A stretch of 64,000 nt of DNA from an uncultured Actinomycetota bacterium (GCA_964595565.1 CAZQQX010000002.1:3502-67501), one strand, 5' to 3'; positions 13,377 through 38,362 are shown, counted from the first letter of the stretch. A program made the numbers and translations. Notes: a model not told the origin generated them from the letters alone.

Positions 13377-13913
13377 TTATTTAAAACTATTTTTATTAAA
13401 ACTTTCAACAATATCCTTTTCAATCTCTTCAGGAACCAGCCCCTTTATACATCCCTTAAACATAGCTACCTCCTTAACAGCACTGGAGCTAAGGTAGGCA
13501 AATTTAGGATTTGTTACTATAAACATGGTTTCCACCCCTGGATTTAATTTTTTGTTTATTTGTGCCATCTGGAACTCGTACTCAAAATCTGATATAGCTC
13601 TAAGGCCTTTAATTATCACCGTTGCTTTTACCTTCTTTGCTACTTCTACCAGTAACCCATCAAAAGTGATAACCTCTATATTTTCTAAACTGCCAAATAC
13701 CCTCCTGGCAAATTCAACTCTTCTTTTTATTGAATAAAGAGGTTTCTTTCTCGGGTTTCTTGATATCGCTACTATAACTTTAGAAAAATTTTTTGAACAC
13801 CTCTGGATTATATCCCTGTGCCCTTCTGTTAAAGGGTCATAGGTCCCCGGACATAGTGCTATTCTCTCCGGTATTTTTTCCACTATTTTAATCCCATCTT
13901 CTAATTTTTGCAT
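13377..13913 (-). CDS. coaD: phosphopantetheine adenylyltransferase
   Basis: 178 aa; CPGTYDPLTEGHRDII (HxGH nucleotidyltransferase motif), ISDFEYE. Confidence 0.9.
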   Translation of the reverse strand: MQKLEDGIKIVEKIPERIALCPGTYDPLTEGHRDIIQRCSKNFSKVIVAISRNPRKKPLYSIKRRVEFARRVFGSLENIEVITFDGLLVEVAKKVKATVIIKGLRAISDFEYEFQMAQINKKLNPGVETMFIVTNPKFAYLSSSAVKEVAMFKGCIKGLVPEEIEKDIVESFNKNSFK

Positions 13914-13917
13914 ATAT

Positions 13918-14472
13918 TTAACCTGGAGACAGGTAAATTACTTTTTTATCTCCAAAATGTGATTCCTTTAATATTTCTAATTTTTTTATTTCTTCTTTAA
14001 TGTCCCTTTTAAAAAAATACTCATATATTACAAGGCAATTATCTTTAGTAAATTTATTTTCCGATATGACCTCAAATATTTTTATCATTATATCACTTAC
14101 AATCTTATAAGGCGGGTCAAGAAAGATTATATCCCACTTTAAATCAGTATGAAAATCAAAAAATTTTAAAACATCACTGTTTATTATTTTATACTTTTCC
14201 CTTTGAATTTTTAAGCTTCTGACATTATATTCTATTAATCTAACGGACTCAAAGCTTTTATCTACAAAATAAACTATATTGCAATCCCTGCTCAGTGATT
14301 CTATCCCGAGCGAACCTGTTCCCGCGAATAAATCCAGGACATTTGCCCCTTTTATTTTATCGCCAATAACATCGAATATGCTTTCCTTTACTCTATCCAG
14401 AGTTGGTCTGATTTTATAATTTAAAGGGGGTCTGAGTTTTCTTCTCTTAAATTTACCTGAAATTACTCTAAT
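13918..14472 (-). CDS. rsmD: 16S rRNA (guanine966-N2)-methyltransferase RsmD, apparently initiating at a non-canonical ATT codon
   Basis: Open frame from in-frame TAG (14500-14502) to TAA (13918-13920). It reads (I)IRVISGKFKRRKLRPPLNYKIRPTLDRVKESIFDVIG...LDLFAGTGSLGIESLSRD...FLDPPY, the RsmD N-terminus and SAM and DPPY motifs. There is no in-frame ATG/GTG/TTG before residue ~150. GGTGG lies 6 nt upstream of ATT at 14472. The gene is missing from the ORF track. Confidence 0.65.
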   Translation of the reverse strand: MRVISGKFKRRKLRPPLNYKIRPTLDRVKESIFDVIGDKIKGANVLDLFAGTGSLGIESLSRDCNIVYFVDKSFESVRLIEYNVRSLKIQREKYKIINSDVLKFFDFHTDLKWDIIFLDPPYKIVSDIMIKIFEVISENKFTKDNCLVIYEYFFKRDIKEEIKKLEILKESHFGDKKVIYLSPG

Positions 14473-14494
14473 AATTAACCACCATGTAATAAAC

Positions 14495-16249
14495 TTATTC
14501 TATTGAAAAAATGTAGGGATACAGAGGCTGCCCGCCTTTGTGTATCTCAATATCTATTTTAGAAAAATATTGTTTAATTTTCTTTGTTATTTTCTCAATA
14601 TCCTCTTTAACTGCATCTTTTCCTGTATAGAAAGTAATAACTTCTTCCTTTGAATCAGTAATATCCCTCACCAGGTCTATGGTCGCATCTACTACATTAT
14701 CTGAAATTACTCTTATGTTCCCATTGGATAAACCAATATATTCACCCTTTTTTATTTTACCCACCATAAGATTAGCATCTCTTACTGCTCTGGTTATCTC
14801 TCCTTCCCTGGTTCTTCTTGCTGCCTCCTCCATATTATTCATATTCTCTTCAATACCTGCCTCGGGGTTATAATTCAGAACAGCAGATATGCCCGCGGGT
14901 ATAGTTCTTGTTGGCACCACATAAATATTTTTTTCTTTTATAATCTTTTTGGTTTGATTTGCAGTAAGAATTATATTTTTATTATTTGGAAATATAATAA
15001 CATCTGTAGCATCCAGACTGTTTACAGCCTTTGCTATATCATATGCTGACGGGTTCATACTCTGCCCCCCGCTCACAATAATATCAACACCTATGCTCTT
15101 AAATATGCCTTCCAATCCATCTCCATTCGCTATAGCAAGCAGGGCTGCTTTTCTCACATCTGCCTTTCTTTCCTCTGGTTCTTCTATGCCCACCTCTTCT
15201 TTTCGCTGGTCCTCCATGTTACTAATCTCAATGTCATGCAGGGTACCTTCTCTTAAAGCTGTTTTTAAAACTTTATTTGGATAGTTGGTATGAACATGTA
15301 TTTTAACTATATTCTTATTACCCACCACCATTGCACTATCTCCGTAACTTTCAATTCTCTCTCTCAATCTTTCTATATTTATTCTATCGCCCTTTACCAT
15401 AACCTGGGTACAATAAATATACTTAATCTCGTAGGTGCGCTTTACCTCTTTCAAATTATCCATATCATTTTCTGAAATATCCTTTTTATACCCATCAGAA
15501 TTATTCTCTTCTGGTGTTTTCCTATTCTTACCATTATTACAGCCTTTTCCCCCGGCCATAGAATATGCTTTCCTGGTTTTATCTGTTTTTAATTCCAGTT
15601 GATTATCTACACTCCCGATTATAGTAAGGGCTTTTTTAATACCGATAATTATATCAAGAAGACCCCGGGCTCCGGCATCCACCACACCTGCTTTCTTTAA
15701 TACCGGCAGAAGGAAAGTTGATCTCTCGACGGATTTCTCGGCTTCAAAAATAATCTCATCCAGAAAATCTATTACCCTCATTTTAAAGATTTTATTATTT
15801 AAACCTTCAACAAAATTCCCGATATCTTTTATGGTAGTAAGCATGGTACCTTCAGTAGGGTCCTGAACTGAGCTGTAAGCCAGATCTTTCGATGATTTCA
15901 GGGCTCTTCTAATTAACCCGGGGTTAAAGCTATTATCTTCAATAAATACATCACAAAAACCTTTAATTATTTGAGATAGTATAACCCCTGAATTCCCCCT
16001 GGCTCCCATTAATGCTCCGAAAGAAGCTTTTTCCAGAACGTTTCTAACAGAAAAATCTTTAACCTTTAAGAGCTCCTCTCTAACAGATTTCAAAGTTAGA
16101 AGCATATTGGTACCTGTATCACCGTCAGGTACCGGGAACACATTTAAGTTATTAATTTTATTTTCATTTTCTTTAAAATTATCAATTACGGTATCAATAA
16201 GTATTTTTAAATCCCCATCATTTATTCCATCAAACATAATATCACTCAT
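14495..16249 (-). CDS. yloV: DAK2-domain protein YloV / fatty-acid kinase FakA-like
   Basis: 584 aa; N-terminal Dak2 motif (VPDGDTGTNM), C-terminal DegV-like/FakA extension; divergent from rpmB as in Bacillus. Confidence 0.85.
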   Translation of the reverse strand: MSDIMFDGINDGDLKILIDTVIDNFKENENKINNLNVFPVPDGDTGTNMLLTLKSVREELLKVKDFSVRNVLEKASFGALMGARGNSGVILSQIIKGFCDVFIEDNSFNPGLIRRALKSSKDLAYSSVQDPTEGTMLTTIKDIGNFVEGLNNKIFKMRVIDFLDEIIFEAEKSVERSTFLLPVLKKAGVVDAGARGLLDIIIGIKKALTIIGSVDNQLELKTDKTRKAYSMAGGKGCNNGKNRKTPEENNSDGYKKDISENDMDNLKEVKRTYEIKYIYCTQVMVKGDRINIERLRERIESYGDSAMVVGNKNIVKIHVHTNYPNKVLKTALREGTLHDIEISNMEDQRKEEVGIEEPEERKADVRKAALLAIANGDGLEGIFKSIGVDIIVSGGQSMNPSAYDIAKAVNSLDATDVIIFPNNKNIILTANQTKKIIKEKNIYVVPTRTIPAGISAVLNYNPEAGIEENMNNMEEAARRTREGEITRAVRDANLMVGKIKKGEYIGLSNGNIRVISDNVVDATIDLVRDITDSKEEVITFYTGKDAVKEDIEKITKKIKQYFSKIDIEIHKGGQPLYPYIFSIE

Positions 16250-16771: not shown

Positions 16772-18331
16772 TTAAATCCTGGCTTTTTCAAGACAGCACA
16801 TAAAGCCTCCTTCACTTCTAAAATAATAAGGCATTATTTCAAAATACCCTTCCCGCTCAATTTCACCGGAATCCTTTTTCAAATTTAAATTTGATACCGT
16901 CTTTTTAAAAATATCCGGGGTTCTGACCCTGTATTTACCCCCGTATTCCTTTAAGAATTTATTTATAACCTCCTGGTTTTCCAGTAGAGATAACGTGCAG
17001 GTGTAAAAAACAAGTTTCCCTCCCGGTTTAAGATACCTGTCACAGTTAGTCATTATCATGTATGACATCCCGGAAAGCCGCCTTACATCATCCATCGTCT
17101 TATTGTATTTCACATCAGGGTTCCTGGATATAGTTCCAAAAGCGCTGCAGGGAGCATCAACAAAAATACTATCAAAGTAATTTTCATAAGTACCGGAAAT
17201 TACCTTCTTTCCTGATGCCTTCTTTATTTTACCTTTTCTTCTTTTATTCAAAAAATCCCTTTCAGAAGCATCTGCTTCTACAATTATTAAATTATTTATC
17301 TTCATTCTCTTTGCATTATCCTTCAATATTTCAAGTCTTTTTTTGCTGATATCAACCGAAACCACCTCTCCCCTATCTCCGAGCATCTCTGAAATATATG
17401 CAGTTTTGCCACCGGGCGCAGCGCAGACATCAAGTATCTTTTCACCTTTAAGAGGCTCTAAAAAATATTTTAATGCCATCTGAGAAGAAAGATCCTGAAC
17501 CGAGACTAAACCTCTGGCATAAATTTTAGTCCGTGTAATACCCTGGACCCTTTTAATTTCTATACTTCCTTCCAGTATGTTTTGTTTAAAAAAATTATAT
17601 TCATAATCTTTTCCTTTAATGGAATTTGATATAAAAGCACCGCCATTATCAGTATCCGGTCCGGATTGTGCTCCGATAATTGAAAATTCTCTTAATTCTT
17701 TTAACAATTTTTCTCTGCCAATTTTATTTTTATTAAATCTTATATACACAGGCAGGCTCTTATTAAGATAGCTACAGATTAAAATTGTTTTTTCTTCACC
17801 ATACCAGTCAAGCCAGTAATCCACCAGCCAGCGCGGATAGGAATATTTTATACTAATTTTTTCATCCTCATCCTCCAGTATGTTATTAATTTTTTCTTCC
17901 ACAAACAGGTTTAAATTTGAGATTGAGCTCGCCCTGCGTAATATTGCATTTACAAATCCCGAAGAAGATGCGCTGATATTTTTCCTGGCCAGCTTGACAC
18001 TTTCATTAACTGTTGAATAATCCGGAACCCTATCCATATATAGCAATTGATAAATACCCATTCTCAGAATATTAAGCACTTTAAAATCAATGTTTTCAAG
18101 GCCCTTGCTGGAGAATAAGGAAATTATAAAATCTATTTTTAAATTATACCTTACGGTACCCTTGACTATGTTAAAAATAAAACGCCTGTCAAGCCCGGAT
18201 AATTTATAATTATTAAAGTAATTATTGATTATATCTTTTAGAGATTTTCTCTTATTAAAATAGTTATTTAAAATTAGGAGTGCGACCTGGCGAGGGTTAA
18301 TTTTATTCTTTCTTTCATTCAAGTTTTTCAC
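16772..18331 (-). CDS. rsmB: 16S rRNA (cytosine967-C5)-methyltransferase RsmB (extended, 519 aa)
   Basis: NusB-like N domain, LDVCAAPGGKT SAM motif, catalytic DAPCS and TCT Cys motifs; fmt-rsmB overlap. Confidence 0.85.
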   Translation of the reverse strand: MKNLNERKNKINPRQVALLILNNYFNKRKSLKDIINNYFNNYKLSGLDRRFIFNIVKGTVRYNLKIDFIISLFSSKGLENIDFKVLNILRMGIYQLLYMDRVPDYSTVNESVKLARKNISASSSGFVNAILRRASSISNLNLFVEEKINNILEDEDEKISIKYSYPRWLVDYWLDWYGEEKTILICSYLNKSLPVYIRFNKNKIGREKLLKELREFSIIGAQSGPDTDNGGAFISNSIKGKDYEYNFFKQNILEGSIEIKRVQGITRTKIYARGLVSVQDLSSQMALKYFLEPLKGEKILDVCAAPGGKTAYISEMLGDRGEVVSVDISKKRLEILKDNAKRMKINNLIIVEADASERDFLNKRRKGKIKKASGKKVISGTYENYFDSIFVDAPCSAFGTISRNPDVKYNKTMDDVRRLSGMSYMIMTNCDRYLKPGGKLVFYTCTLSLLENQEVINKFLKEYGGKYRVRTPDIFKKTVSNLNLKKDSGEIEREGYFEIMPYYFRSEGGFMCCLEKARI

Positions 18332-19283
18332 CGGCTTTTAGCCTGTATCCATTAATAAAATCCATCGCAGACATTACTCTTTTCCCTTCAGGCTGCAAAA
18401 GTTCAATTCTTAAAAGTTTATTTTCTCTGCATCTAACCAGAATACCTGAATTTTTATCAGCCCTGACAACTTCTCCGTCGTTAATATTTTTTTTAACTTT
18501 TAATTCAGACAAAGATAAGTCTTTTCCCGTTTCATCCGGTATAGAAACCTTTAATATTTTGATTCTTAAATTCTTCCAGAAACAATAAGCGCCGGGCTTT
18601 GGACTGAATGCTCTAACTTTATTAATTATCTCTTCTCTTTCATTTTCCCAGTTAATTCTTAAATCTTCTTTCTTTATTTTTTGGGTGAAAATTATCCCCT
18701 TACTCCCCTGCGGATAAGGTTCAAGATTATGGTATTCCATTAAATCCAGAACTTTAAGCAATGCTGATTTTCCTAACTCTATAACCTTTTTCTCGTAGCT
18801 TTCACGGTTATCATCCATCCCTATTCTAAATTTGACCTGGGCGTATATTCTTCCGGCATCGACTTCAGGGACTACCTCCACTATGCTCACACCGCCTATA
18901 ACATCCCCATTAATTAGAGCGCTTACAATAGGGGCAGGGCCCCTGTATCTCGGTAACAGCGAGGGATGTATATTCAACCACCTGGCATCTGTCATCTCAA
19001 ATATTTTTTTGTCCAGTATCTTTCCAAAAGAAGATATAATAACGGCATCAAATTTTTTTTCTTTTAAAGCACGGTAAAAATTATCATCAAATCTTTCAAT
19101 TTGGACATATTCTATTCTCAGCTCTTCAGCTTTCTTTTTTACCACATTATCTGTAACTTTTCTACCTCTCCCGGCCGGCCTGTCAACAATAGTAACCACC
19201 ATATTTACTGAATGTCGTGATTTATATAATTCTTCTAAAAAAGGAACAGAAATGTCCGAAGAACCGAAAAAAATTATCTCCAA
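18315..19283 (-). CDS. fmt: methionyl-tRNA formyltransferase
   Basis: 322 aa; formyl-transferase N domain (IIFFGS...VVT, SLLPRYRG) and C-terminal domain. Confidence 0.9.
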   Translation of the reverse strand: MEIIFFGSSDISVPFLEELYKSRHSVNMVVTIVDRPAGRGRKVTDNVVKKKAEELRIEYVQIERFDDNFYRALKEKKFDAVIISSFGKILDKKIFEMTDARWLNIHPSLLPRYRGPAPIVSALINGDVIGGVSIVEVVPEVDAGRIYAQVKFRIGMDDNRESYEKKVIELGKSALLKVLDLMEYHNLEPYPQGSKGIIFTQKIKKEDLRINWENEREEIINKVRAFSPKPGAYCFWKNLRIKILKVSIPDETGKDLSLSELKVKKNINDGEVVRADKNSGILVRCRENKLLRIELLQPEGKRVMSAMDFINGYRLKAGEKLE

Positions 19284-19299
19284 TTTAAAACTCCTTAAT

Positions 19300-19797
19300 T
19301 CAAATACCCATTTTTATCTCATTGACCATAGACAGAAGCTCACTTCTGGATTTACTATCAAGACGGTCTACATATAAAATCCCATTAAGATGGTCAATTT
19401 CATGCTGAAATATTCTCGCCACTAAATCTTCTGCTACTATTACAACATCCTTACCTTTCAAATCTTTTGCTTTTACTTCCACTTTCCTGAACCTCTGAAC
19501 GCTAAAATCTCTTATTGAATAAATGCTGAGGCATCCCTCTTCAGAATCTATTTTCTCTTTGCCCTTAATCTTAATTTCCGGATTTATAAATGCCTTAATC
19601 TCATCACCCATGTTAACCACAATAACTCTTCTGGATACACCTATCTGGGGTGCAGCCAATCCCACTCCACCTTCTTTTTCCATGGTATCAATCATATCTT
19701 TAACCAGGCTTTTCACCTTCCCGTCTATTTTCTCCACACCCCTGCTTTTTTCTCTCAGAACCGGGTCACCTATTTTTCGTATTTTTCTGGCTGACAT
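19300..19797 (-). CDS. def: peptide deformylase
   Basis: GLAAPQIG, EGCLS, QHEIDHL motifs; probable start is MSARKIRK at 19797, preceded by AAGGAGG; the longer track ORF starts upstream inside priA. Confidence 0.9.
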   Translation of the reverse strand: MSARKIRKIGDPVLREKSRGVEKIDGKVKSLVKDMIDTMEKEGGVGLAAPQIGVSRRVIVVNMGDEIKAFINPEIKIKGKEKIDSEEGCLSIYSIRDFSVQRFRKVEVKAKDLKGKDVVIVAEDLVARIFQHEIDHLNGILYVDRLDSKSRSELLSMVNEIKMGI

Positions 19798-19813
19798 AAA
19801 ACCTCCTTTAAAT

Positions 19814-22060
19814 TTATAAAATCCATACCGGATCCACATCAATTATTATCCTGTTTTCACTAAATTTTTTAAATCTCTTTAATATCTCATGAACTGACCT
19901 GTTTATTTTAGAAATATCATTTACCTTTATCATTATATGCCATCTGTAAAACATGTTAATCTTTTGAAAAGGCGCGGGAGCCGGCCCCAGAACACTGCAA
20001 CCATCCCCGGCTATTTTACTTAGCTGCATAAACAGACTTCTTATATCTTTTTTAACCCTGGCTTCATCTCTGCCGGATATTATAATATTTACTAAATTAG
20101 AGAATGGGGGATATCCCAGCTCCTTTCTATTTTTTAATTCCTGCCCATAAAATAATTCATAATTATTCTTAAGTATACTTTTAATTATAGTACTTTCTGG
20201 ATTATATGTTTGTATTATTACCCTCCCCTTTTTCCTTCTCCCCGTTCTTCCTGCTACCTGGGTTACTAGCTGATAAACTCTTTCATTCATATGATAATCA
20301 GGAAGAACAAGCATGCCGTCACAGTTAATAATACCAACAAGTGTAACATCTTCAATATCCAGACCTTTGGCCACCATCTGGGTGCCAATAAGAATGGAAC
20401 CCCCGGGAGAAATAAACTTTTTAAGTATCTCCTGATGGGATTTCTTTTTCACGGTCACGTCTGAATCCATTCTGAGTACAGATGCATCCTTAAACATTGC
20501 CTGAAGCCTTGACTGAACTCTCTGAACCCCGACCCCCTTTAAAAATATATTTTCCGACCCGCAAACATCACATTTTCCTGTATAGCTTCTTTCCCTGCCA
20601 CAGTGATGACATACTAACTTCTTAGTATCGCTGTGATAGTTATAAGGAAGATCGCAGGCGGGACACTTTGGAACATTGCCACATTTACTGCATATCACAA
20701 AATTGCTGTGCCCTCTCCTGTTCAGAAAAATGATTACCTTATTTTTTTTTAATAACTCGCTTTTTATTGATTTAAATAATCCACCAGTAACAATTACGTT
20801 TTCTTTGTTCCTGTCTATCTTTTTTAAGTCAATTATATCCATCTCCAGCGGGCTGGTGCTCTGAGCTCTGATGGGAATTTTAATCAGGGTAAAATCTTTT
20901 TCTCTTTCAGCCCTGAATCTTGTAACTATGTCGGGTGTAGCACTGCCAAACACAACCGGAATATTAAACAATTCCCCCATCTTTATTGAAACATCCCCGG
21001 TGTTATATCTCACCCCTGTTCCTTCCTTATAAGAGGTATCATGTTCTTCATCAATTATTATTACCCCCGGATTATTCACCGGAGTAAAAAGTGAGGACCT
21101 GGTCCCTATAATTATGTCAAATCTACCTTCCCATATATCCAGCCACCTTTCATATCTTTCTGCTTCACTCATATTGGAATGGTATACACCTACTCTCCGG
21201 CCAAACTCCGATTCAAACCTGTAAAATAATTGTGGTATTAGAGAAATCTCAGGAGTCAGTACAAGTGCTTTTTTATTCTTTTTTAACACCAGTTTGCAGA
21301 CACCAATATAAATATCAGTTTTGCCGCTGCCCGCAACACCCTCAATTAGAAATTTGTGAAAAATATTTTTATCCAGTGCATCAGCAACGCTTGAAATTGA
21401 TTCTTTCTGATAATAGTTTAAAGTTATCTTTTTTTTATCCCTGTTCTTATATGGATAATATTCATACCTGAAATCTCTTCTCTGCCTCTGTTTTTTTACA
21501 GAGATAATATTTTTGTCCAGAAGAGCCGCCAGGCTGGTACGGTTAGAACCGGTTTCCCTTATTAATTTTTCTCTCAAAACCCCGTTATGGGAAAGTAAGT
21601 AGTCAATTACTCTCTTTTTTGAATAGTTCTTTTTCCAGTTTATTTCATCCTTAATCCGCTCATAATTATCCCTGTTTAAAAAAACATAATCTTTATATTT
21701 AAACTGAATTTCGTTACCCGGGGCAGATTTCTTACCCGGAGGTATAAAAAACTTTATAACACTCCCGAAAGGCTGTATATAATACTGGCTTATCCATTTT
21801 ATTAGCTCAAGCTTCCTTGAATCAAAAACAGGTTTCCTGTTTAATATCTTCGTGATATCTTTTATATTTCTATCTTCTAATTCTGACTTATCTTTTACTC
21901 TGACTACATAACCGGCTTCGATTCTATTATTAAAAGGAACCTGCACCATAATTCCGGTACGGACATCCGGAGTTAAATAATGAGGTATGCGGTAGTCAAA
22001 AGGATGACTGATGTTAAGGGCTCTTATATCTAAGTAAACCTCTGCATATCTTTCAGGCAT
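19814..22060 (-). CDS. priA: primosomal protein N' (PriA helicase)
   Basis: 748 aa; DEAD-like helicase motifs (GVAGSGKT, DEEH), Cys-rich zinc-binding insert (CSKCG...CPACD...CHHCG...CDVCG). Confidence 0.9.
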   Translation of the reverse strand: MPERYAEVYLDIRALNISHPFDYRIPHYLTPDVRTGIMVQVPFNNRIEAGYVVRVKDKSELEDRNIKDITKILNRKPVFDSRKLELIKWISQYYIQPFGSVIKFFIPPGKKSAPGNEIQFKYKDYVFLNRDNYERIKDEINWKKNYSKKRVIDYLLSHNGVLREKLIRETGSNRTSLAALLDKNIISVKKQRQRRDFRYEYYPYKNRDKKKITLNYYQKESISSVADALDKNIFHKFLIEGVAGSGKTDIYIGVCKLVLKKNKKALVLTPEISLIPQLFYRFESEFGRRVGVYHSNMSEAERYERWLDIWEGRFDIIIGTRSSLFTPVNNPGVIIIDEEHDTSYKEGTGVRYNTGDVSIKMGELFNIPVVFGSATPDIVTRFRAEREKDFTLIKIPIRAQSTSPLEMDIIDLKKIDRNKENVIVTGGLFKSIKSELLKKNKVIIFLNRRGHSNFVICSKCGNVPKCPACDLPYNYHSDTKKLVCHHCGRERSYTGKCDVCGSENIFLKGVGVQRVQSRLQAMFKDASVLRMDSDVTVKKKSHQEILKKFISPGGSILIGTQMVAKGLDIEDVTLVGIINCDGMLVLPDYHMNERVYQLVTQVAGRTGRRKKGRVIIQTYNPESTIIKSILKNNYELFYGQELKNRKELGYPPFSNLVNIIISGRDEARVKKDIRSLFMQLSKIAGDGCSVLGPAPAPFQKINMFYRWHIMIKVNDISKINRSVHEILKRFKKFSENRIIIDVDPVWIL

Positions 22061-35487: not shown

Positions 35488-36024
35488 TTACTCCTTACCC
35501 GAAACCGTAACGCTATCCACTCCATCAGTTTCCTTTAATTTAACTTCCACAGACTCATTTCTTGAGGTAGGAAGGTTTTTCCCCACATAATCAGCCCTTA
35601 TGGGAAGTTCCCTGTGCCCCCTGTCTATTAAAACTACGAGCTGTATTGACTTCGGCCTTCCAAAATCAATCAGAGCATCCATAGCCGCCCTTACTGTCCT
35701 TCCGGTATACAGGACATCATCAACAAGAATTACATTCTTACCCTCTATATCAAAAGTAATATCGGTTATCTGCGCCGCAGGTTTAATATTATGCCCGATA
35801 TCATCTCTGTAAAAGGTTATATCAAGCTTACCGCTCTGAATTTTTATTCCCTCAAATTTTTCAATATTTTCGGCTATTCTATTTGCAAGCGGCACCCCTC
35901 TCTTCTGAAGACCAATAAAAACCAGATTCTCCGGCCCTTTATTCCTTTCAAGTATCTCATGCGAAATTCTTCTGATTACCCTGTCTATATCACTTTCACC
36001 TAATATATATGCCTTTTCTTTCAT
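35488..36024 (-). CDS. pyrR: bifunctional pyr operon regulator / uracil phosphoribosyltransferase PyrR
   Basis: 178 aa; PRTase fold ([13 protein letters not shown]); first gene of the pyr operon. Confidence 0.9.
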
Positions 36025-36039
36025 AAAATTTCACCCAAT

Positions 36040-36075
36040 AAAAAAAGCCTCCTTACCATAAAAGTAAGAAGGCCT
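36040..36075 (-). terminator. intrinsic attenuator terminator in the pyr leader; stem sequesters the pyrR AAGGAGG SD
   Basis: Minus-strand RNA GCCUUCUUAC-UUUUAUG-GUAAGGAGGC followed by UUUUUUUAUU, ending 16 nt before the pyrR ATG. Confidence 0.6.
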
Positions 36076-36099
36076 GAATATCTTCCCTGTTAATATATG

Positions 36100-36160
36100 T
36101 TTCTATGTATATTGTTTTCATTCCTTTTTAGCCTCTCCGGACTACTTTAAAGGTCACAAA
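36100..36160 (-). promoter_or_regulatory. PyrR-binding (anti-antiterminator) hairpin of the pyr leader
   Basis: Minus-strand RNA ...CCUUUAAAGUAGUCCGGAGAGGCUAAAAAGG... contains the PyrR box AGUCCGGAGAGGCU (consensus ARUCCNGNGAGGYU) inside a CCUUU/AAAGG plus UAGUC/GGCUA stem. A TATAAT on the minus strand (36199-36204) is a candidate -10 for the operon promoter. Confidence 0.6.
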
Positions 36161-36956: not shown

Positions 36957-38251
36957 TTATGGTTCAACAACTTTGCCCATGAACAGGATAGCTCCACTCC
37001 TGTCATCGGCAATTACAAAGAAAAATGGCCTGTTTACTACAAACTCTATTACTTCCTCAACCGGCATTGCTGATTCAAGCATCTCTACTACGGTAGCAGC
37101 TGCAGCCTCACTCCCTTTTTCATTAACCTCAATGACAGCTTTGTGAAGCACCTCAGATATCCAGGGACTATCACAAGATTCACAGTAAAAAATACCGCTG
37201 AAATCAGCCCTGCCCGGATCAAAGGCAATACCCATACCCATTTTAATCAACACATCATTTAAAAGCTTGATGCTATATTCCATCTTATACCGGGGCATAA
37301 CCAGAGAAATCTGACTTGCGTGGAACGACTTCTTTATTTCATTCCATTTCTCCGAATCCAGTGATTCAATTACCGCATCAACACTTATACCCTCATCGGG
37401 AAGGATTATATACATGGCCATCTTTTCCTGACCATAGGGAAGCCTTACACCTGAAAAGTTATCACCCCTGCAGTAGCCAGAATTTTCCTCCTGTGACATC
37501 ATGGGAACTTTTTTGGTAGTTCCATCACTGAGATAGAAATCGTCGTCAGCAGTCAGGTTCTCATCAAAGGGGTAAGTCCAGTTTCCTTTAAAATATATAG
37601 CATTTATAAGATACATAACCGTATCTGTCGGTATTTCTGAAATCATCTTATCAATCTTTCCCCGGGTTTTTCCCTCTATCCATCTGTTTATAGTGACTAC
37701 TGCATCATGTGAAGAAAAATCAATTTCTTTAACTTCGGAATTAAAATATTTACTGTTTCTTTCAATAAAATCCTCTTTGACTTTATCGCCCGGTCTGTAC
37801 CAGATGGAATTAGCAATAGAAAGTACTATATTACTATCTGCATTTTTAATGCTGATCAGAAGATTGTGGAACCCGGAATTAAGCTCCTCAGGGTCAAATC
37901 CCTTAAACTCAAGAGTTTCTGCCATGGCCAGGCTGGTATCACCTGCCGCTCCGTTATAGGTCATTGCCAGGGCAAGAAGTATTGACAGAGGAGATATAAA
38001 AACACTCCTGCCACTGTCTTCTGAAATAAGCTCTTTAAAAAATTTAAATCCGAATGCGGTATTTGAATCAACCAGACTCCTATCAACAGAAGATGCTACT
38101 TCATCCGACTGCCCGGCACTAATTTTTCATCCGGATATTCATCTACAGTTCCCCTATCTTCCACGGAACACCCTGCAGATAGGGCTGTTCCCGTAAATAG
38201 TATGGCAAAAGATAAAACACCAAGAAACCGTAGCAATCTATCTTTTTTCAT
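36957..38251 (-). pseudogene. lipoprotein serpin (serine protease inhibitor) with reading frame interrupted in an A5/T5 run; either a frameshifted gene or a homopolymer sequencing error
   Basis: Track ORF 36957..37964 (335 aa) ends ...RPFFFVIADDRSGAILFMGKVVEP with the RCL hinge GSEAAAATVV, both serpin hallmarks. The same frame stays open upstream to 38126, reading KISAGQSDEVASSVDRSLVDSNTAFGFKFFKELISEDSGRSVFISPLSILLALAM (serpin helix A). An ATG at 38251 in the -1 frame encodes MKKDRLLRFLGVLSFAILFTGTALSAGCS (lipobox LSAGC) and hits TAG at 38096-38098. Adding one A to the gaaaaatt run (forward 38121-38128) joins the two frames into a ~431-aa serpin. Confidence 0.6.
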
Positions 38252-38362
38252 ATTGATTCCCCGGTTAATATTATAAATCCATAATATAATACGCAGTACA
38301 ATATAAAATTATTAAGGGTGCAAAATATCAATTCTGGAAAGCAACTGCTCGGTTATAAAAAG

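Follow-up and report, generated by a model that had tools for sequence, protein, structure and literature searches.

The window, a stretch of 64,000 nucleotides (nt) from an uncultured Actinomycetota bacterium (GCA_964595565.1 CAZQQX010000002.1:3502-67501; positions are counted from its first letter), hosts on its minus strand a yloV-rsmD-coaD gene array, in which rsmD very probably starts at an ATT codon. The features of the locus, listed from the 5' to the 3' end of the coding strand, are the following.

14495..16249, minus strand: yloV, encoding a DAK2-domain fusion protein (TIGR03599, 536 bits).
14500..14502, minus strand: in-frame TAG which closes the rsmD frame upstream, as seen by translation.
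14468..14485, minus strand: out-of-frame mini open reading frame (mini-ORF) ATG GTG GTT AAT TAT TAG, set within the Shine-Dalgarno region and not conserved.
14479..14483, minus strand: Shine-Dalgarno (SD) motif GGTGG, separated by the 6-nt spacer TTAATT from ATT.
14470..14472, minus strand: putative initiation codon ATT, presumably decoded as formylmethionine (fMet); it corresponds to Met1 of the orthologues and to position 1 of the Pfam profile.
14472..13918, minus strand: rsmD coding sequence (CDS), 184 amino acids (aa) plus TAA, 185 codons from ATT, delimited by translation, TIGR00095, PF03602 and the ratio of non-synonymous to synonymous substitution rates (dN/dS).
14086..14088, minus strand: ATG, first in-frame canonical start (ATG, GTG or TTG), the 128th codon past ATT, encoding Met129, an internal residue that is conserved.
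13920-13918, minus strand: rsmD stop codon TAA, from translation.
13377..13913, minus strand: coaD (TIGR01510, 182 bits; synteny).

Nine sense codons (AAT AAG TTT ATT ACA TGG TGG TTA ATT), none of which is canonical, separate the TAG at 14502-14500 from ATT. From 14472-14470 onwards the codons read ATT AGA GTA ATT TCA GGT AAA..., translated IRVISGKFKRRKL... The sole in-frame ATG, GTG or TTG is the ATG at 14088. The original prediction, made from the sequence of the window, had placed the first canonical codon about 150 codons in; its position has to be amended to codon 128 after ATT, or 137 after the opening of the frame. No in-frame canonical codon able to yield a full-length protein is present in rsmD, either inside the frame or upstream to the closing stop. 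Canonical codons occur in the long ORFs of the window at a density of 0.040 per codon, and the probability of finding none in 127 codons is 0.006. All the other intact long ORFs of the window have a canonical start 0-25 codons from the opening of their frames, and rsmD is the only one lacking such a codon near the 5' end. The GGTGG motif was correctly located by the prediction 6 nt upstream of ATT 14472. The stop codon of yloV (TAA, 14497-14495) lies 22 nt upstream of ATT, the mini-ORF, five codons long from ATG 14485, ends with a TAG which shares 1 nt with ATT, and coaD starts, at 13913, 4 nt past the rsmD stop.

The 184-aa product translated from ATT scores 145.9 bits against TIGR00095, above the curated cutoff of 117.5, and 155.7 bits against PF03602. 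Residues 1-180 are aligned to positions 1-180 of the 182 of the latter profile, which sets the ATT codon at profile position 1; the alignment to orthologues similarly sets it at Met1. RsmD proteins are marked by an S-adenosylmethionine-binding motif I (D-x-F-x-G-x-G) and a catalytic motif IV (D/N-P-P-Y/F), and both are found in the product, as LDLFAGTGSLG and FLDPPYK (DPPY), respectively. In the protein alignment (A1) D119, P120 and P121 are invariant, G51, G53 and M129 nearly so. Profile and motif matches confirm that the predicted full-length product belongs to the RsmD, or 16S rRNA (guanine966-N2)-methyltransferase, family, and that an RsmD frame resides between yloV and coaD, as had been claimed. 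Methylation of G966 of 16S rRNA within assembled 30S subunits, the reaction attributed to the family, would be its predicted activity. Over codons 2-128, the part of the gene lacking canonical starts, dN/dS versus relatives ranges from 0.14 to 0.24, a result implying that this stretch is both translated and constrained. The frame is unbroken and evolves under purifying selection, and the hypothesis of a pseudogene, which had been put forward as a possible refutation of the ATT start, fails. Constraint begins at codon 2, which is AGA or AGG, always encoding Arg with synonymous changes; none acts on positions -1 and -2. Between codons 2 and 128, internal ATG, GTG and TTG codons number on average 2.3 in the relatives described below and 3.7 in seven low-GC outgroups, the expectation from the window background being 5.1; several relatives have none ahead of the conserved Met129. 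The depletion is suggestive of an avoidance of competing internal starts, but is too weak for a claim.

A protein search identified relatives in metagenome-assembled genomes (MAGs) of Actinomycetota and Candidatus Humimicrobiaceae, and a striking share of these proteins had been called short (118-172 aa), or starting with MSGKF... A scan of contigs with a single protein was uninformative on starts, because one of its patterns, MRVISGKF, forces ATG in all 79 distant loci; only one locus, L001, proved useful. Patterns taken from the middle of the protein, hence unbiased as to the start codon, were used to scan metagenomes, and yielded 35 loci of the lineage (L081-L115, 49-73% identity), along with 43 from the outgroup whose N-terminus was aligned. 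The window, L001 and L081-L115 make up an ingroup of 37 sequences from Candidatus Humimicrobiia-type Actinomycetota, which fall into 28 clusters at 90% identity, with a minimum pairwise identity of 46%.

The codon for residue 1 of RsmD is ATT, ATC or ATA (ATH) in all the 37 ingroup sequences, being ATT in 14, ATC in 15 and ATA in 8. An SD-like motif (GGTGA, GGTGG, GGAGA or GGCGG) is found upstream in 36 of them, the remaining one carrying none of those listed. The spacer past the leftmost listed 5-mer measures 6 nt in 27 of the 37, with a range of 5-8 nt. No in-frame canonical codon occurs from the upstream stop to ATH in 33 of the 37, and 24 carry an in-frame stop 1-2 codons ahead of ATH, often as a TGA within GGTGAT. 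In the alignment of 29 start regions (A2), G35, G36 and G38 (GG.G) are invariant, as are the AT of the start codon, the third base being T, C or A, and the AG of Arg2. The genomic context is also preserved: where the flank was available (36 loci), yloV was found in 35 and coaD in 34, the distance between the yloV stop and ATH being anywhere between about 20 and about 127 nt among relatives. The proposal that ATT 14472 is the start gains strength from this comparison, and the use of ATT and ATA in relatives, suggested earlier as a check, turned out to be a feature of the whole clade and not of this genome only. The alignments show the putative AUH-plus-SD architecture to be kept across the whole Candidatus Humimicrobiia-type clade.

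In the outgroup, the aligned residue-1 codon is canonical at 41 of the 43 loci. One of the remaining two (L157) has GTA at the aligned codon and ATG two codons upstream, the other (L151) has ATC. ATH starts thus occur in all 28 clusters of the ingroup and in 1 of the 43 outgroup loci (Fisher p = 6e-19). Canonical RsmD proteins, such as E. coli YhhF and B. subtilis YlbH, share with the window gene family, motifs, length and the usual rsmD-coaD adjacency, and differ from it in opening, as the outgroup orthologues do, with ATG, GTG or TTG.

L151 (L151:1501) and L172 represent another actinomycetotal lineage, rich in GC (about 63-65%), in which ATC is found behind GGGGAGG, with a spacing of 5-6 nt. 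The two loci are 70% identical, share the recG-rsmD synteny, and have relatives named Geothermincolia or Anoxymicrobiaceae; other relatives of theirs use ATG, GTG or TTG. The ATC start may either have originated twice, hence be recurrent, or have been repeatedly lost by reversion.

Parsimony on an outgroup-rooted neighbour-joining tree counts 10 start-codon changes, about 9 of which exchange ATT, ATC and ATA for one another; within the clade, no change leads to ATG. Undirected changes of the third base would all miss ATG with a probability of (2/3)^9 = 0.026. Since ATG is normally favoured, yet has never been regained, the putative weak start of rsmD appears to be maintained by selection, which is likelier than neutral tolerance.

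The reading favoured here, to which a probability of roughly 0.85 may be assigned, is that rsmD is functional and starts at the AUU at 14472-14470, read by fMet-tRNA and preceded at 6 nt by an SD element (GGUGG/GGUGA), in a region of little structure. The conserved element would direct the ribosome to AUU, which would be read as start by the initiator fMet-tRNA, and the process would be an ordinary SD-directed initiation on an open, weakly structured site. The start region of the window is less structured than all of 200 shuffles (z = +2.05). No pairs were obtained by RNAalifold from 29 sequences around the rsmD start, and no match was found there by an Rfam scan, the sole hit of which in the window is the PyrR site described at the end. 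The absence of a conserved structure and the low level of structure relative to shuffles both fit with an open site at which ordinary initiation is directed by the SD motif. In E. coli reporters based on chloramphenicol acetyltransferase (CAT), AUA, AUU and AUC gave 238-352 units versus 7314 of AUG, or about 3-5% (PMC3643588). From these figures, AUH would be expected to hold RsmD synthesis low. By analogy with the AUU of infC, it may also make RsmD synthesis dependent on the stringency of start-codon proofreading, exerted by initiation factor 3 (IF3) and possibly by the state of the P site. Some re-initiation by ribosomes that end yloV, 22 nt upstream, may contribute, but would not be the main route.

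A different scenario, in which rsmD is translated mainly by re-initiation, after the yloV stop 22 nt upstream or after the mini-ORF (ATG 14485..TAG 14468), with no independent initiation at ATT, is improbable. It has some appeal, as the yloV-rsmD-coaD synteny is kept with a gap of about 20-30 nt in most relatives, members carrying ATT-AGR, the window included, have a mini-ORF stop sharing 1 nt with ATT, and re-initiation made up about half of the translation of second cistrons in E. coli short-gap reporters (PMC3592434). Yet, the SD-6 nt-ATH arrangement is kept in L097, L099 and L115, in which the gap is about 110-127 nt, and re-initiation is therefore not essential. Moreover, conservation is lacking for the ATG of the mini-ORF, whose stop exists only if the start codon is ATT. 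A start codon would be needed anyway, and re-initiation is best viewed as a contributing route, rather than as an alternative to initiation at ATT.

Two other routes into the frame were considered and rejected. Entry from the mini-ORF ATG 14485, or by a frameshift, is at odds with the variability of both the ATG, replaced in relatives by ACG, CTG, TTG, CCG or AAG, and its frame relation to rsmD. Read-through or a +1 shift from yloV would need a fixed frame relation, yet the gap is 22 or 23 nt in some loci and extends up to about 127 nt in others.

It is very improbable that translation starts instead at the fourth codon, the ATT at 14463-14461, which would give a product opening with MSGKFKRRKL... 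ATH is found at this position in all relatives, Ile4 being conserved, and the codon has been chosen in the NCBI record of a relative (P0002, ATT), as in NCBI proteins opening with MSGKF... (P0004, P0010, P0057). The distance from the SD motif would be however 15 nt, versus 6 nt for codon 1. Codons 2 and 3 (Arg, followed by Ile or Val) are conserved as amino acids through synonymous changes, which argues that they are translated. Codon 1 is where the Pfam and TIGRFAM profiles open, as do all canonical orthologues, and is also taken, as ATA, by the NCBI records P0014 and P0045. In P0014 three in-frame stops directly precede the codon-1 ATA. The ATT at -1 (14475) is not conserved among relatives.

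The 56-aa C-terminal fragment under which the gene is found in public data (see below) occurs on seven contigs from seven samples, corresponding to two haplotypes with 0 and 18 CDS differences. All seven share an identical start region, ...CATGGTGGTTAATT ATT AGAGTAATT..., and the same region is found in the independent MAG L001 (95% amino-acid identity). Sequencing error as the source of the ATT start is excluded, and the possibility that resequencing would reveal a canonical codon there is refuted by these independent assemblies. The idea that an assembly indel near 14470-14490 has put ATG 14485 out of frame, or that rsmD is a decayed gene, deserves virtually no credit, for although an ATG does sit 13 nt upstream of ATT in another frame, and one gene of the window, the serpin gene mentioned below, is split in two by a shift of frame at an A5 run, the start region is the same in seven contigs from seven samples and in L001, the ATH architecture recurs in all 37 ingroup sequences, most with in-frame stops directly upstream, and the 184-codon frame is unbroken, with a dN/dS of about 0.2 and a family score over the cutoff.

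Some considerations weigh against initiation at the AUU at 14472 and the significance attached to it. The start has been assigned in an uncultured lineage from sequence comparison. Codon 1 is preferred to codon 4 (ATT 14463) on the grounds of the pattern of coding constraint, of family alignment and of distance from the SD motif, which in the window is only a 5-mer. The notion of maintenance by selection rests on a modest parsimony result (p about 0.03) and on the survival of the pattern through deep divergence. The data are accounted for equally well by a regulatory role and by a simple requirement for low expression.

Annotation of these genes is erratic. For this genome, JGI/IMG and Logan report only the 56-aa C-terminal fragment, named RsmD in JGI/IMG, because Prodigal-type calls start at ATG 14088. 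The expectation that pipelines would miss the gene holds for these resources, but not for NCBI, where ATA or ATT are called as starts in relatives (P0014, P0045, P0002). NCBI annotation is in turn inconsistent within the clade, as the start is set at codon 4 (MSGKF...) in P0002, P0004, P0010 and P0057, and at codon 1 (MRIISG...) in P0014, P0030 and P0045. Prodigal-type calls systematically shorten or mis-extend rsmD in this class, and inferences on genome completeness and pathways are distorted as a result.

Non-canonical starts of the AUU type are of a known kind, infC and pcnB being examples. Binns and Masters reportedly found in 2002 that the AUU start of E. coli pcnB, which encodes poly(A) polymerase I, keeps the level of the enzyme low. 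As in rsmD, an AUU start is here found on the gene of an RNA-modifying enzyme; unlike RsmD, the pcnB product has no functional link to initiation. A likeness is also seen to infC of E. coli and many other bacteria, a gene of the translation apparatus with a conserved AUU-type start behind a proper SD. According to Sacerdot 1996, as cited in PMC3643588, the phylogenetically conserved AUU of infC acts as the sensor in an autoregulation that depends on IF3. The two genes differ in their products, in the exchange of all three AUH codons seen in rsmD, and in that regulation is hypothetical for rsmD; in contrast to the widespread infC start, the ATH pattern of rsmD is confined to one or two deep actinomycetotal lineages. 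A precedent within Actinomycetota is sigR of Streptomyces, which has a conserved non-canonical GTC start, is repressed by IF3, and has its expression tied to IF3 stringency (PMC5472188). The codon class is different, and the product is a sigma factor rather than an rRNA methyltransferase. For ebpA of Enterococcus faecalis, an ATT start was predicted in silico where annotation had taken a downstream ATG, and the ATT attenuates expression (PMC4447247). ebpA is a pilus gene of a single species, with no clade-wide conservation. The comparison across loci indicates that the predicted ATT start of rsmD is a real, conserved and gene-specific non-canonical start. It would be one of the few cases beyond infC conserved to such a depth, that of a whole bacterial class, and at a single gene. 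A full-text search of the literature retrieved no description of a non-canonical rsmD start.

The product of RsmD activity, the N2-methylated G966 of 16S rRNA (m2G966), resides in the P site of the 30S subunit, where it faces the initiator tRNA's anticodon. The AUH start might be a homeostatic sensor of the m2G966 made by RsmD itself, in an infC-like loop acting via rRNA modification and not via a protein factor; the hypothesis is tentative, and at present rather doubtful. According to it, ribosomes lacking m2G966 would initiate with a different efficiency at codons with a third-position mismatch, and under-methylated 30S subunits would translate rsmD mRNA better, thereby restoring methylation. 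Deletion of rsmD in E. coli increased initiation at AUA 2-fold; the effects at AUU (1.17-fold) and AUC (1.2-fold) were not significant (PMC3643588). In a 2026 preprint, 16S rRNA devoid of all modifications is reported to lower the use of GUG and UUG, AUH being outside its tests, and any feedback by m2G966 might thus run in either direction. A link to the function of RsmD fits with, and is not proven by, the retention in the clade of AUH and never of AUG, the ATC of L151 and L172, and the canonical starts of rsmB, fmt and def. As RsmD modifies a P-site nucleotide contacting the initiator tRNA, a testable hypothesis is offered that connects the methylation status of rRNA to start-codon stringency.

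The genes just mentioned are located upstream of the yloV-rsmD-coaD array.

16772-19842, minus strand: def, fmt and rsmB, all with canonical starts.

They lie 2-5 kb upstream of rsmD on the same strand, with a divergent rpmB between them, and rsmD alone, among these initiation-related neighbours, bears an ATH start. The rsmB product is the C967 methyltransferase, which acts beside G966.

The coaD gene, immediately downstream (13377-13913, minus strand), is called in public data with two different starts, giving 178 aa (ATG 13913) or 168 aa, and the CoaD family profile opens at residue 18 of the long form.

A relaxed use of start codons throughout the genome was considered and discarded. The sole other candidate in the window, at 36957-38126, is a serpin gene split by a frameshift, and no further intact long ORF of the window qualifies. 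The serpin sequence (PF00079, 394 bits, match from residue 21 of the open frame; 36957-38308, minus strand) has been severed from the ORF encoding its lipoprotein signal peptide (MKKDRLLRFLGVLSFAILFTGTALSAGC...) near 38122-38130, where a frameshift coincides with an A5 run; slippage, a pseudogene or an assembly error at the homopolymer could each account for it. The PyrR binding site (RF00515, 59.2 bits; 36038-36157, minus strand) lies directly upstream of pyrR (35488-36024; NF003549, 256 bits), and is an ordinary pyr attenuator.

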